Below, piece after piece: positions 11,324-16,628 of a stretch of 64,000 nucleotides of DNA; position 1 is the stretch's first letter, and each line of letters begins with the position of its first letter. Source of the DNA: a bacterium (GTDB lineage Bacteria; Patescibacteriota; UBA1384; CAILIB01); assembly GCA_037131105.1 (NCBI GenBank), contig JBAXRQ010000001.1, positions 765,465-829,464 on the forward strand, read 5' to 3'. The notes beneath the pieces were generated by a model. The model was not told the DNA's origin. It ran no database searches and saw only the letters and a list, made by a program, of their open reading frames with translations. A program made the position numbers and the translations under genes.

Positions 11324-13330
11324 CTATGCGTTTGCCTGACCCGCTCCAGGCGCTCCCTCCAGTTGGCAGGTCTCCTCAACTTGGGTTTCTAGATTTTTTA
11401 TTTCCTGCTCAAAGTTAGTCTTCCATTCCTCAAGCTGTGCTAGCTTTTCTGTCAGTTCCATTGAAGATTCCGTTCCTATTGCCGCTTGCTCTGGCCAATC
11501 AGTCCGTTCCGGACCGTTGCCGAAGGCGACGTCGACCGTCTTCCTTGGTCCGATAAACTCCTTCTCTGGTGCTTGATTTTGTGGCGGGACGACATTAAAT
11601 GATTCGACCATTCCACCGCTGCCATAATTCGGGTTTTGGTCCCAACCGGGTGACTGGAAGAACCCGAACTGGTCTTTTAATAGTTGGTACAGGTACGCCC
11701 GGTCGCTGGCTATCGTGCTTTGCGAGACAAACTCTTTCCACAGGTAGTAGTCGAGTTCGTTTCGGTAGCCTTCCTGCTGCCACTGGGTCATGACGTGGTT
11801 GAGTGCCCGTAACGATAGTACCGATTCCTTCAAGACATAGCGGGCGGCTCGGCCTCCGGCTTCTTTGAAGTAGTAGGCGCTTTGTATCGCTCGTCCCGCG
11901 AAAACGTCCTGGGTCAGACGGGCGGCCTTGGCTAAGTTCCATAGTTTCTTAACACTGTCCTTTGGCCCCTCGATATTTCCGTTCTTGTCCATAACCTCGG
12001 CGATCAGCAGGTGGAAGAGTTCGTTTTCTTTCCCCGCCTCATCCTCCAGTCGGCCTTCAGTTTTTTGCGGCAGATAATCGTACTCGACTTTATACAGTCG
12101 GGAAAGCAGTGCCGGATCCATATCCTGCCGGTCAATGTAGCGTTCCTGGCCTTGGTTGAGGTTGCCCGTCATCATGACACCGAAGCCCTCGCCCACCTCC
12201 ACCTCCATGCCACTATCTTGTTGCACGTTGATCCTGTCGCCGACTTTTCGGGTCAGGATATGGTTGAGGCTGATTAGGACCTCGTGGGGAATCGCGTTGA
12301 CCTCGTCGATGATGACCGGCCGGCCTTCTTGCATGGCCCGGTAGATTGGTCCAAGGAAAAACTCTGAGATTGTCCCGCCCTTCAAGCCGGCTAAGTAGGT
12401 CTGCAAGATGCGGTCGTGGGACCGGCTCTTATCTTCCTCGGGGGCCTGCGGGTTCTGTTCCTCCCACTCATTAAACTTTCGCTCAACATTGCCGATGAAA
12501 CCATCGAGCTCTTGAGGGTCGATGCGGTCGATGGCCAAGACCTGATGGCCGTAGAGTTCCGCCAACGAGGTATGCTTGGATCCGGATACCACCAAGGCTT
12601 CTTTCCCAATATATTCACGGGCGATATGCATGGCCAACTCGGTTTTGCCGGTGCCTAGATGTCCGTAGATCATGACCGGTTTGCCTGCGTGCAGGTGGAC
12701 CACGATGTCCTCGGCTCGTTCTTTGACGTAGTCCGTTTCAACCAGCTTGCCTTGCTCAAGCTGGCCCTTGTACTCTTTTAGCTCATTTAGATGAAGGCCG
12801 TAGTAGGCTTCGGGTGTCGACTTGAGAAGCTGTTCCTGTTCTTGATCAAGTCCGGCTAGTTCCTGGCGTATTTCCTCCAACGCGTCCAGTTCTGAACCAG
12901 TCGGCTGGCCCTTGATTTTCCGAAGGTACGCCGATTCTTCATTTAAGAGATCCTGGCGCAGCTCTTCCAGCATTGCCTGGCGGCGCATCGCTGCGATCAT
13001 ATTTCTCTTGCGCCAGCCGACCAGCGCTCGCTCTGGCGAGTCATCTGGCCCGAGCGTTGCCTCGGCTAGCTGTCCGAAGGCTTCTTCTCTTTCCAGGGCT
13101 TTCTTGACCTGGCGCGGGGACGATGAAGAGTTTACGACTTCTTCATTGGGGAGCGTGTTTCGCGCCTGGACCACTTCCGGGTATCGGTCGGTTGGTTCGG
13201 GGCTGATTTTTGGCAGCCCAGTTTCCCGATACAAATCCTGCGACGCCTTATCAGCCGCTCGTTGTTGGGTCTCTGCCTCGTCCACCCGCGCTTCAGTTTG
13301 TTGCCACTCCTGAGGAGTAAGTTTCTCCAT
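11324..13330 (-). CDS. MoxR-like AAA+ (AAA_5) ATPase with long N-terminal coiled-coil region
   Basis: Walker A GHLGTGKT, Walker B VIIDEVNAIP, sensor motifs; 668 aa. Confidence 0.75.
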   Translation of the reverse strand: MEKLTPQEWQQTEARVDEAETQQRAADKASQDLYRETGLPKISPEPTDRYPEVVQARNTLPNEEVVNSSSSPRQVKKALEREEAFGQLAEATLGPDDSPERALVGWRKRNMIAAMRRQAMLEELRQDLLNEESAYLRKIKGQPTGSELDALEEIRQELAGLDQEQEQLLKSTPEAYYGLHLNELKEYKGQLEQGKLVETDYVKERAEDIVVHLHAGKPVMIYGHLGTGKTELAMHIAREYIGKEALVVSGSKHTSLAELYGHQVLAIDRIDPQELDGFIGNVERKFNEWEEQNPQAPEEDKSRSHDRILQTYLAGLKGGTISEFFLGPIYRAMQEGRPVIIDEVNAIPHEVLISLNHILTRKVGDRINVQQDSGMEVEVGEGFGVMMTGNLNQGQERYIDRQDMDPALLSRLYKVEYDYLPQKTEGRLEDEAGKENELFHLLIAEVMDKNGNIEGPKDSVKKLWNLAKAARLTQDVFAGRAIQSAYYFKEAGGRAARYVLKESVLSLRALNHVMTQWQQEGYRNELDYYLWKEFVSQSTIASDRAYLYQLLKDQFGFFQSPGWDQNPNYGSGGMVESFNVVPPQNQAPEKEFIGPRKTVDVAFGNGPERTDWPEQAAIGTESSMELTEKLAQLEEWKTNFEQEIKNLETQVEETCQLEGAPGAGQANA

Positions 13331-13416
13331 GTCCTATCCTTCCTTATTTTCTTTATTATAGCCGTGGTCAGTCATAAAGTAAAAGTTAAAAATTAAAAAA
13401 GCAAAAAGTCCAAATA

Positions 13417-14487: not shown

Positions 14488-16628
14488 AGCTGGACATTCC
14501 CTAGGTATTCCTTAAGAACGGTGGTGATGGCCGGAATCAGGTTGTCGATTTTCTCACCCACCACTTCGCCGTGCGCCTCTGCCCGATTGGTATTCCAGAC
14601 AGCATTGAAGGTTTGTCGCTCACTATCATCAACCTGGCCGATCTGGAAGGCCCTGGCAAGCACGCCGGCATTGAGGAGCTGGTCGACCGATTGGCGGCTT
14701 GAGGCCGGATCGGACGATCCTCCGTCAGTCACCTCGAAGAGTATTTCCAGTAGCTTTTCCTGGTCCATCCTTGTCTTGTCCTCAGGCTTCAATGAGACCA
14801 GTATCTCTTGCAGGGGCAGATGGTCATACGTCGAGCCGATCGTTGTGTTTAGCTGTTCAAATATCTTTACCGTCTCGACCTGTTCATCCACGACTCCGGT
14901 TTCACTCCTCAGCCGTTTTATTTTTTGAGCGCTATCGCCAAATATCCAGGCCTCGGTGTCGGCTTCCAACTTTGACTTGGTCTGGGACCGGGTCAGGTTT
15001 AGGTAGGTGTTGAATTCCCGCAGCGATGACAGAATGAGCACGAAGCACTGCTGGAGAATATGCCGCTTGGCTTCGTCCATCGATCCCGACATGTCGCCGA
15101 CCAGCCTTACCCTGATCAAGTCAGGCCTTTGGATTAGCCGCTCTTTCGAGACCATTCGCTTCATGACCTCGGCTTGGTCAAGCTCGCCTCGTTCAATCTG
15201 GGGCCACTGCTCAATCGCCTTGGAAACATCGAGTTCTGTGCCGGTTTTAAAGTGGCCCTCCAGCTCCCGCTCTTGCCTGGTTGACGAACCGAATATGATC
15301 TTGCGCCAGAGCAGGGCAAGGTCCTGTAAATACGGTTCTATCTCAGCCTCAATCCGGCGGAACTGGCGCAGCGCTTCAGGCGATATGCCATGCGTTGCGC
15401 ACCAGGACTGGTCAAGCACCTCCTGGGATTGTTGGGCTCTTTCCTCAGGGCTCTTTTGTTCGTCTTGCGCCTGCTGGCTGGCCTGGGTTTCTTTATCCTG
15501 TTTTTCTTGCTCGCTTTTATCCACCCAGTCCTTGATCTGGTCCTCGTCTATTTGGTCTGGATTGTTCTGGTCGAATTCCTGGTAGTCTTCACCGAAGGGA
15601 TCTCCAGCGCCCCCTTCCCCGTCATCCTGGCCTTGTCCGGGTTGTTGCTCTGGTTTTTGCGGCTGCCAGTCTTCAAGGTCTTTTCGCAGCAGTTCTTGGA
15701 AAACGGGTTCGAGGGTCTTTTGCAGGACAAAATGGCGCTGCCCGGCCTTGGTATCTCGTCCGGCTCGGGGCTTGATAAAGTCTTCCACAATTTGTCGGGC
15801 TGTATATTCTTTTCCTCCAAAAAGGATCGGCCGGTTGAGTACCTCCTTGACTTCGTCAGTCAGGGTCACGTTTTCATCCGGGACCATTTCTTCGCGTAGC
15901 AATGAATACAAAAACTGTAGGTGCCTCGGCTGGCTCGAGTAGTCGCTCTCTTTAAAGAGCTGGTCGCGGTAGAGATCCCTGATCGCTTGGCCGCCGGCCT
16001 GGTCGTTCTCAAAGCGTGGCGCTCGCCGGGCAACCAGGTTATTGACGTAGATGTCATCAAAGATATTGTAGAAGGTATGGTGGATCTTGTATCCGGCCCG
16101 CTCGGTTGCGTTCATCGTTTGGCTCGGATCCTTCTGGCTTGTTGGCATCGGCCGGCGCAGTCTTTCCAGGAATTCAGGGTCGCTATCGCCGAGCGTCTCC
16201 TCCCATCTTTGCATGATCAGTTGCCCTGTCTCGGCGGCTTTTGACCGAATATACTTAAAATTTCCAAGCATGTTCTTGGCATCGGCATTCAGGTCCCTGA
16301 AATGGGCCAGCTCATGCATGCAGGCCCATAGAATTTGTTCTTTTGAGAAGCCTTTGTCGGCAAACCACTTGGTTGCCAGGTTCACCTCTCCACTTTCCAG
16401 GTCGATAAAAAAAGCTTGGCCCAGCTTGAAGCTGAGCGATACGTCGCTGGCAAATGTCGTAAACAAACGGCGGTAGCTGTCGATCAGCCCTTGAGCCTCA
16501 GCCGTATACTCGGAAAAATCCTCCGTTTGTCCGGGTTCTGGTGGCTTTTCTGCCTCGAAAGACTGGGTCTCTGGCTCGTCGACTCGGTAGCCGGTAATGT
16601 GTTCCATAATAGTACCATTGTACACCAA
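14484..16628 (-). CDS. HExxH metallopeptidase-like / von Willebrand factor A (MIDAS) domain protein (DUF2201-like MoxR partner)
   Basis: N-terminal MHELAHF motif, acidic Q/E-rich linker, C-terminal DMSGSMD MIDAS motif; TTG start. Confidence 0.7.
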   Translation of the reverse strand: MVYNGTIMEHITGYRVDEPETQSFEAEKPPEPGQTEDFSEYTAEAQGLIDSYRRLFTTFASDVSLSFKLGQAFFIDLESGEVNLATKWFADKGFSKEQILWACMHELAHFRDLNADAKNMLGNFKYIRSKAAETGQLIMQRWEETLGDSDPEFLERLRRPMPTSQKDPSQTMNATERAGYKIHHTFYNIFDDIYVNNLVARRAPRFENDQAGGQAIRDLYRDQLFKESDYSSQPRHLQFLYSLLREEMVPDENVTLTDEVKEVLNRPILFGGKEYTARQIVEDFIKPRAGRDTKAGQRHFVLQKTLEPVFQELLRKDLEDWQPQKPEQQPGQGQDDGEGGAGDPFGEDYQEFDQNNPDQIDEDQIKDWVDKSEQEKQDKETQASQQAQDEQKSPEERAQQSQEVLDQSWCATHGISPEALRQFRRIEAEIEPYLQDLALLWRKIIFGSSTRQERELEGHFKTGTELDVSKAIEQWPQIERGELDQAEVMKRMVSKERLIQRPDLIRVRLVGDMSGSMDEAKRHILQQCFVLILSSLREFNTYLNLTRSQTKSKLEADTEAWIFGDSAQKIKRLRSETGVVDEQVETVKIFEQLNTTIGSTYDHLPLQEILVSLKPEDKTRMDQEKLLEILFEVTDGGSSDPASSRQSVDQLLNAGVLARAFQIGQVDDSERQTFNAVWNTNRAEAHGEVVGEKIDNLIPAITTVLKEYLGNVQL

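Follow-up and report, generated by a model that had tools for sequence, protein, structure and literature searches.

A diversity-generating retroelement cassette linked to a MoxR-like AAA_5 ATPase and a HExxH-vWA protein in Patescibacteria and DPANN archaea

We analysed a 64,000-nucleotide stretch from the genome of an ultra-small bacterium of the Patescibacteria (GenBank assembly GCA_037131105.1, contig JBAXRQ010000001.1, positions 765,465 to 829,464; the whole stretch is called the window) and identified in it one composite minus-strand cassette that reads T1, TR, (Avd), RT, HExxH-vWA, T2, AAA_5. T1 and T2 are targets of a diversity-generating retroelement (DGR), which also comprises a template repeat (TR), the accessory gene Avd and a reverse transcriptase (RT). 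The HExxH-vWA gene encodes a putative peptidase domain joined to a von Willebrand factor type A (vWA) domain, and the AAA_5 gene encodes a MoxR/NorQ/Midasin-like ATPase. The core two-gene machine, AAA_5 plus HExxH-linker-vWA, is widespread in Patescibacteria (CPR, for Candidate Phyla Radiation) and in DPANN archaea. T2, the HExxH-vWA protein and the ATPase very probably function together, and we propose that they most likely form a tripartite cytoplasmic machine in which a DGR-diversified binder works with a MoxR-like motor and with the peptidase-vWA protein as effector or adaptor. The DGR would furnish this machine with a hypervariable ligand-binding module, as a C-terminal fusion to the AAA_5 protein in some lineages and as a free T protein of ~350 amino acids (aa) in the lineage of the window.

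Layout of the cassette

The genes and repeats of the cassette, with the variable repeats (VRs) of the two targets, are as follows (window coordinates).

14484..16628, minus strand: HExxH-vWA gene, 714 aa
13417..14487, minus strand: DGR target 2 (T2), 356 aa; N-terminal helical hairpin, globular middle and C-terminal beta-rich VR-bearing domain; model with a predicted local distance difference test score of 94.6
11324..13330, minus strand: AAA_5 (MoxR/NorQ/Midasin-like) ATPase gene, 668 aa
18398..19447, minus strand: DGR target 1 (T1), 349 aa; T-family hidden Markov model (HMM) match at 2e-122
18408..18528, minus strand: VR1, the 3'-terminal variable repeat of T1
17959..18079, minus strand: TR, with 11 AAY codons
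17558..17950, plus strand: accessory gene Avd, on the other strand from RT
16646..17628, minus strand: DGR reverse transcriptase, in two open reading frames (ORFs; 17098..17628 and 16646..17101), RVT_1 in both halves
13427..13547, minus strand: VR2, variable codons 319-347 at 13447-13533
13355..13383, minus strand: sigma-70-like promoter match TTTACT-17-TATAAT (10/12 positions) in the T2-AAA spacer
20888..22468, plus strand: large serine recombinase beside the cassette, a possible mobility gene

An earlier note, made from the sequence alone, had described three co-directional genes in which the stop of the vWA gene overlaps the start of T2 by 4 bp. This arrangement was confirmed; the overlap is ATGA, within ...CTATGAGCG..., and the spacer between T2 and the AAA_5 gene measures 86 bp. 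The vWA gene may start at either of two codons, a TTG (16628) or the first ATG, which lies 7 codons further on. By a crude test, no 19-residue hydrophobic segment above a Kyte-Doolittle value of 1.6 occurred in the vWA, T2 and AAA proteins, which suggests that all three are cytoplasmic and carry no export signals.

T1 and T2 are paralogues (44-45% identity), and T1 occupies the canonical place upstream of TR-(avd)-RT. The N-terminal helical hairpin of T2 covers residues 3-57 (14308-14487). Since T2 aligned to the T family over its full length (HMM positions 4-356, 3e-148), it is not a pseudogene, and the view that it is an intact target lacking a signal peptide was upheld.

The AAA_5 ATPase and the HExxH-vWA protein

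Motifs and domains were located in the two partner genes, all on the minus strand.

12641-12664, minus strand: Walker A of the ATPase, GHLGTGKT
12302-12316, minus strand: Walker B of the ATPase, VIIDE
~15654-16523, minus strand: zincin-like N-terminal domain of the HExxH-vWA protein
15291-15653, minus strand: acidic Q/E/D-rich linker
14487-15290, minus strand: vWA domain
16302..16316, minus strand: HExxH motif HELAH, residues 105-109
15081..15095, minus strand: metal ion-dependent adhesion site (MIDAS) DxSxS motif, DMSGS, residues 512-516

The ATPase matched Pfam AAA_5 (E = 8e-14) with intact Walker A and Walker B motifs, and is presumably ring-forming. G223-K229, E343, N345 and R401/R411 were invariant in 24 AAA homologues. 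Its nearest solved relatives were NorQ (4e-4) and Midasin (3e-6, with the family profile), and both NorQ and NorD were among the closest solved relatives. In the partner protein, the vWA fold carries a complete MIDAS, with D512, S514, S516, T600 and D635 invariant in 35 homologues, and the best matches of this domain were the MIDAS domains of Midasin and NorD, which are intracellular and AAA-partnered. The earlier assignment of both the AAA_5 and the vWA/MIDAS domains thus held.

The HExxH motif was equally constrained. H105, E106 and H109 were invariant in the 35 sequences; the motif was kept in 227/236 near-full-length family members, and among 46 distant members its conservation was 90% or more. 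The topology of the N-terminal domain is a small beta-sheet followed by a long helix that holds the motif. Three homologues (P0106, P0438 and P0474) carry a Transglut_core domain inserted before the acidic linker (Pfam 2e-13 in P0106), and the HExxH is absent from all three, compared with 6/233 of the remaining members. The replacement of one protease domain by another argues that this is a place for a protease. Taken together, the motif, the beta-sheet/helix topology and the transglutaminase comparison point to a putative peptidase. A Transglut_core ORF also lies in the window at 9550-10122, ~1.2 kb downstream of the AAA gene.

At 50% identity, the CPR/DPANN-specific HExxH-linker-vWA family falls into ~480 clusters, and neither Pfam nor PADLOC has a model for it. 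A profile of the N-terminal domain, searched against 1.84 billion representatives, returned proteins of the same architecture only, and no bridge to a named peptidase family appeared apart from sporadic DUF2201_N matches. No relatives of the vWA protein were found in IMG/VR, so a phage origin is not supported.

Conservation of the gene neighbourhood in CPR and DPANN

From genomes in GTDB, metagenomes at JGI and look-ups of exact proteins we gathered 119 loci, and 92 distinct loci with a relative of the window's vWA protein remained after deduplication, from Patescibacteria and DPANN archaea. The AAA gene lay directly downstream of the vWA gene in 40 loci (one on the opposite strand), downstream beyond a T gene in 7, and adjacent upstream in 4. 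The vWA and AAA_5 genes were therefore neighbours in 51/56 informative cases, and the synteny test that the earlier note had proposed was passed: the three genes are a genuine, conserved unit. Four further loci end, with their contigs, inside the T gene that follows vWA. The commonest order was T-TR-(avd)-RT-vWA-AAA, with extra targets in mid-cassette or downstream. Insertion of a target between the two partners, taken earlier as the distinctive trait of this operon, is true of the window and is a minority order overall (7/60 loci, or 11/60 including the four contig-end cases).

Avd(-)-RT stood directly upstream of vWA in 37/67 informative loci, a count that takes in L006, whose RT overlaps vWA; the spacing between RT and vWA ran from overlap up to ~40 bp. 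DGR-linked loci clustered in clades of the vWA tree. Two loci, L048 and L061, showed the order T-vWA-T-AAA with no RT within 8 kb, and in L038 a T gene lay between a HExxH+MIDAS protein and an AAA_5 protein that are both too divergent for the family profiles. The link between T, vWA and AAA is thus independent of the RT. The association also crosses domains of life: a Woesearchaeota contig carried a vWA-AAA pair ~60% identical to that of the window, and a Micrarchaeaceae contig (L037) carried Avd-RT-(AbiEii, transposase)-vWA-AAA. In the latter, AbiEii toxin-like and Transposase_mut genes are lodged between the DGR RT and vWA at 2286-4775.

Fused and split forms of the variable domain

The VR domain was found either free-standing, as in the window, or on the AAA protein, as in L021, and never on the vWA protein. 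Both AAA_5 genes of L021 end in VRs, whose mismatches to the TR fell at adenines in 15/15 and 21/23 cases. The same long AAA form occurs in L079 (1093 aa, with a C-terminal extension of 333 aa), where Avd-RT lies downstream. Homologous C-terminal AAA extensions are retained in the DGR-less pairs L018, L003 and L029, and that of L018 is 45% identical to the VR-bearing extension. All AAA proteins with an extension longer than 100 aa (7/7) belonged to loci without a T-family gene, and the median AAA length was 656 aa with a T gene versus 738 aa without (p = 0.0014). Fused and split forms, with their complementary distribution, therefore argue for a physical partnership between the target and the pair.

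Shared modules were found beyond the VR domain. The T hairpin also heads the L006 targets, which bear a different VR domain, and it heads a 144-aa Woesearchaeota protein (L035, 535-969) that consists of the hairpin and WG beta-repeats and is encoded directly upstream of vWA-AAA. These occurrences suggest that the hairpin may be a general, portable docking module. In addition, a ~70-aa beta-rich N-terminal module is common to long AAA_5 proteins (e.g. L003, 12953-15766) and a target of L038 (11866-13194; E = 2.6e-14); the AAA protein of the window does not carry it.

State of the retroelement and variation of the target family

The repeats bear the signature of a DGR: each VR forms the 3' end of its target ORF, and its differences are concentrated at TR adenines. 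VR1 differed from the TR at 25 positions, 23 of them at TR adenines and 2 elsewhere, and VR2 at 26 positions (22 at TR adenines, 4 elsewhere). Avd was 67% identical to an L001 protein bearing Pfam bAvd and sits in the opposite-strand position of architecture B3 (PMC5758913). In one T-family cluster at 90% identity, 20 of the 29 variable positions lay within a VR of 30 residues, and as many as 6 alleles occurred at a site. These data demonstrate active diversification and hypervariability of the T family in natural populations.

The RT of the window is frameshifted at 17098-17101 into ORFs of 176 aa and 151 aa, with the break in a loop between RT motifs. A JGI contig (L091), probably from the same population, was 100% identical across the frameshift, and the break may reflect either a real pseudogene or the derivation of both contigs from the same reads. 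Programmed frameshifting was considered and rejected; since the junction has no slippery heptamer, the likelier cause is a pseudogene or an error of assembly. Related RT genes contain (GA)n or (CT)n tracts within the coding sequence (L001, 4925-4970; L011, 1570-1592), in the same loop as the break in the window, and the L011 RT is likewise out of frame there. Such tracts may mediate slipped-strand on/off switching of the RT or may be a hotspot for assembly errors.

Proposed mechanism and points against it

We propose that a cytoplasmic T protein would bind a ligand through its diversified C-terminal face and dock onto the ATPase/vWA complex through its hairpin; the ATPase would turn binding into remodelling, and remodelling would activate or position the HExxH peptidase. 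The likely role would be intracellular sensing of invader or partner-cell proteins, as in DGR-linked MoxR-vWA ternary conflict systems. The suggestion that T2 is a recognition subunit recruiting an ATPase and a peptidase is still the best reading, backed by the AAA-VR fusions and by the replacement of HExxH by a transglutaminase domain. The chances that the full order of sensor, ATPase and peptidase is correct are evenly balanced in our judgement, and an immune role is possible and put forward tentatively.

Several observations weigh against this proposal. With regard to the peptidase, Pfam and PDB sequence searches, including one with the N-domain profile, gave no match covering the N-terminal domain, and no known peptidase was matched by HMM or by fold, the fold search being dominated by the vWA domain. 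Sporadic sub-threshold DUF2201_N matches appeared in two members (E = 0.037 and 0.0028) and DUF2201 matches in none of the 81 members scanned. The HExxH assignment thus failed HMM validation, though the motif itself is invariant in 35 sequences. Likewise, the confident model of T2 matched no solved fold in the PDB, and the CLec label that had been attached to it was not confirmed by fold search. With regard to a defence role, PADLOC gave no match for vWA, T1 or T2 and matched no specific defence-system protein model, yielding only weak matches to AAA residues 156-269, including Walker A (best 4.6e-5); Pfam scans found neither defence-specific nor VMAP domains, and neither Pfam nor PADLOC returned anything specific for T1 and T2.

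Other points concern the genes themselves. The pair is kept with no RT nearby in 27/67 loci, so that ~40% of vWA-AAA pairs stand without one. Conversely, T genes occur as orphans in L040 and L041, where flanks reaching 8 kb at most (and shorter on one side in L041) contain no vWA, AAA or RT. A T gene also stands alone in L039, whose upstream side is cut by the contig end. The sigma-70-like site just upstream of the AAA gene is the best match in the region, although the total of such sites was not above chance; the AAA gene may have its own promoter, leaving RT-vWA-T2 as one transcription unit and AAA as another. Finally, the window copy has no intact DGR-type RT, and inside the VR proper VR2 shows two non-adenine differences from the TR and VR1 zero. 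Because the RT is frameshifted and VR2 carries these differences, the DGR of the window may have been recently inactivated and this copy may no longer diversify. The description of the target as hypervariable therefore stands for the T family and may be historical for this copy.

Alternative explanations

The conserved linkage could also be explained by quality control or maturation, in which the machine would serve its targets: the MoxR-like ATPase and the vWA adaptor would fold, assemble or metal-load the variants, and the HExxH peptidase would clear misfolded ones. Characterised MoxR-vWA pairs (NorQ/NorD and CbbQ/CbbO) are maturation or remodelling factors, with NorQ and NorD among the closest solved relatives here, and the tight linkage of RT and vWA, which overlap or lie 2-40 bp apart, would let diversification and quality control be expressed together. 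However, a VR domain fused to the C-terminus of the ATPase suits a sensor better than a client, and vWA-AAA pairs persist with non-diversified binders, such as the WG-repeat protein of L035, and in the DGR-less L018, L003 and L029; we regard this explanation as unlikely. Host attachment is the prevailing view of CPR DGR targets, and a surface complex would require that the T and vWA proteins be exported non-classically and mediate adhesion of an episymbiont to its host cell, with the ATPase driving assembly. Against this, a signal peptide or transmembrane segment is absent from all three proteins, the vWA domain found its best matches in the MIDAS domains of Midasin and NorD, which are intracellular and have AAA partners, and pilus genes are not conserved neighbours, which together leave attachment decidedly improbable.

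A role of the vWA-AAA pair as DGR accessory factors, aiding mutagenic retrohoming by remodelling, for example, the RT-Avd-RNA complex or the target DNA, would account for the position of vWA immediately after RT in 37/67 informative loci and for the co-inheritance of both in clades. It fits poorly with the 27/67 loci that keep the pair without a nearby RT, with the RT-less T-vWA-T-AAA order of L048 and L061, and with the VR domains fused to the AAA protein, and other DGRs need no such factors by the classification of PMC5758913; we consider it highly improbable. Chance association, with the genes as functionally unconnected cargo of a mobile island, was already disfavoured and is close to negligible. 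A serine recombinase does adjoin the genes in the window and L001, a transposase is present in L037 and integrases in L005, and the ~60% identity of archaeal and bacterial copies suggests horizontal transfer. Yet order and orientation are conserved across vWA proteins at ~30-60% identity, and neither the domain fusions, the complementary distribution of fused and split forms nor the recurrence with unrelated-looking partners is expected of hitch-hiking cargo.

Mobility and the wider window

The earlier note held that the unit rides on an integrative element, and the support for this is weak. Among the deduplicated vWA loci, an adjacent serine recombinase occurred in only 2, the window and the L001 group, and no IMG/VR relatives were found; a further serine-recombinase match in L098 lay on the opposite strand, ~660 bp away. 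The serine recombinase is not a conserved part of the module. Further candidates for module parts, namely the small ORFs beside the recombinase and a helix-turn-helix gene that lies downstream of AAA, were rejected, being conserved in no other locus.

Further features were observed elsewhere in the window. A low-GC island at 22500-30330 (GC 0.40-0.44 vs ~0.55 elsewhere) carries genes for a PD-(D/E)XK nuclease and for a 1172-aa superfamily 1 helicase that includes, as a fusion, an MTES_1575 restriction-endonuclease-like domain. The island lies between two large serine recombinases (20888-22468 and 28742-30319), the second overlapping a tRNA-Ala gene (30255-30330). A 16S rRNA match at 35874-37650 spans 1777 nt against a 1533-position model, implying ~240 nt of insertion, a common feature of rRNA genes in CPR. 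The 16S gene is followed by four tRNAs (35260-35676), one of which (35434-35505) was left unassigned by ARAGORN with a two-base 'cg' anticodon call, and tRNA-Ile (33730) and tRNA-Ala (30255) come several kb further on with ORFs between. No 23S rRNA gene scored above threshold in the window. A YcaO cyclodehydratase-family gene (6175-7911, Pfam 8.5e-35) lies upstream and is apparently unrelated.

Significance and comparison with known systems

To our knowledge, CPR and DPANN carry more DGRs than any other cells. Their targets have been described as lacking recognisable domains, and their roles have been guessed to be host attachment. Our results indicate that conserved gene order and fusions of domains wire many CPR/DPANN DGRs to two proteins, a MoxR-like ATPase and a putative peptidase with a vWA domain, and that all of these proteins are without export signals. 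The working hypothesis thereby shifts to intracellular recognition in immunity, regulation or targeted proteolysis. Otherwise orphan variable proteins thereby gain concrete candidate partners, and a conceptual link forms between the CPR elements and the 'antigen sensor' systems that are hypermutated in multicellular bacteria. That a large share of CPR/DPANN DGRs program the substrate or ligand receptor of an intracellular AAA+ motor coupled to a metalloprotease, instead of surface adhesins, is a bolder and rather unlikely generalisation; if true, it would mean an antibody-like, continuously re-targetable sensing or targeted-proteolysis machine that uses a VR-bearing fold not recognised before and passes between Bacteria and Archaea.

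The general idea has been published, and what we describe is a CPR/DPANN version of hypermutated sensor plus MoxR plus vWA systems. DGR-diversified sensors on MoxR and vWA ternary systems were reported in cyanobacteria and gammaproteobacteria, including Thiohalocapsa (Kaur et al. 2020, PMC7159879; Doré et al. 2024, PMC10907252), and those reports include targets with unknown N-termini beside a MoxR. In CPR, targets fused to a Midasin-like AAA were described as 'UVR4/Midasin' targets, alongside architecture B3 (Wu et al. 2018, PMC5758913), and AAA-ATPase-fused DGR targets were described by Paul et al. 2017, as summarised in PMC10907252. The claim of the earlier note that this architecture had not been described was thus overstated, as both DGR + MoxR + vWA and CPR AAA-VR fusions are already in the literature.

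The VMAP ternary systems resemble the present one in that a single neighbourhood holds a MoxR-like AAA+ ATPase, a vWA/MIDAS protein, a C-terminal binding domain diversified by a DGR, and a peptidase, in having targets that are mostly predicted to be cytoplasmic, and in the proposed logic of sensor, ATPase and effector. They differ in four respects. VMAP systems carry a VMAP protein, whereas here Pfam found no VMAP-type, Trypco or EAD domain in the three proteins or in their neighbours, and gave only a sub-threshold bpMoxR match, on the L021 AAA protein. Their peptidase is a trypsin or caspase on VMAP, whereas here it would be the HExxH domain at the N-terminus of the vWA protein. Their FGS/CLec variable domain sits on the vWA component, whereas here the variable domain is free or on the ATPase. 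Lastly, the hosts here are CPR and DPANN, which were left out of the VMAP-system studies or said there to lack conflict domains. The system of the window therefore falls outside the VMAP family on two defining features, the VMAP protein and the placement of the variable domain on vWA.

The published CPR/DPANN AAA-fused DGRs share with our loci the same organisms, the TR-(avd)-RT architecture and, as in L021, a Midasin-like AAA_5 with a C-terminal VR. The accessory genes listed by Wu et al. are only avd, HRDC, MSL and CH1 (PMC5758913), and an HExxH-vWA partner directly after RT, together with a separate hairpin-VR target gene, is not described in the published accounts compared, among which Paul et al. 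2017 is represented at second hand only. In DUF2201_N/DUF2201 proteins, which are putative metallopeptidases, a vWA-like domain likewise comes after an HExxH domain at the N-terminus, and by HMM the window protein is not a member of that family. Among AAA_5 motors that work with a MIDAS/vWA domain, NorQ/NorD, CbbQ/CbbO and Midasin (Rea1) are the nearest parallels, and the acidic linker plus MIDAS layout found here resembles the D/E-rich linker and MIDAS of Midasin as well as the NorQ/NorD pair. These motors remodel fixed clients (nitric oxide reductase, Rubisco and pre-ribosomes, respectively) and have neither a peptidase domain nor a hypervariable subunit, whereas the cassette described here combines an AAA_5 motor and MIDAS/vWA protein with a DGR target and a putative peptidase.

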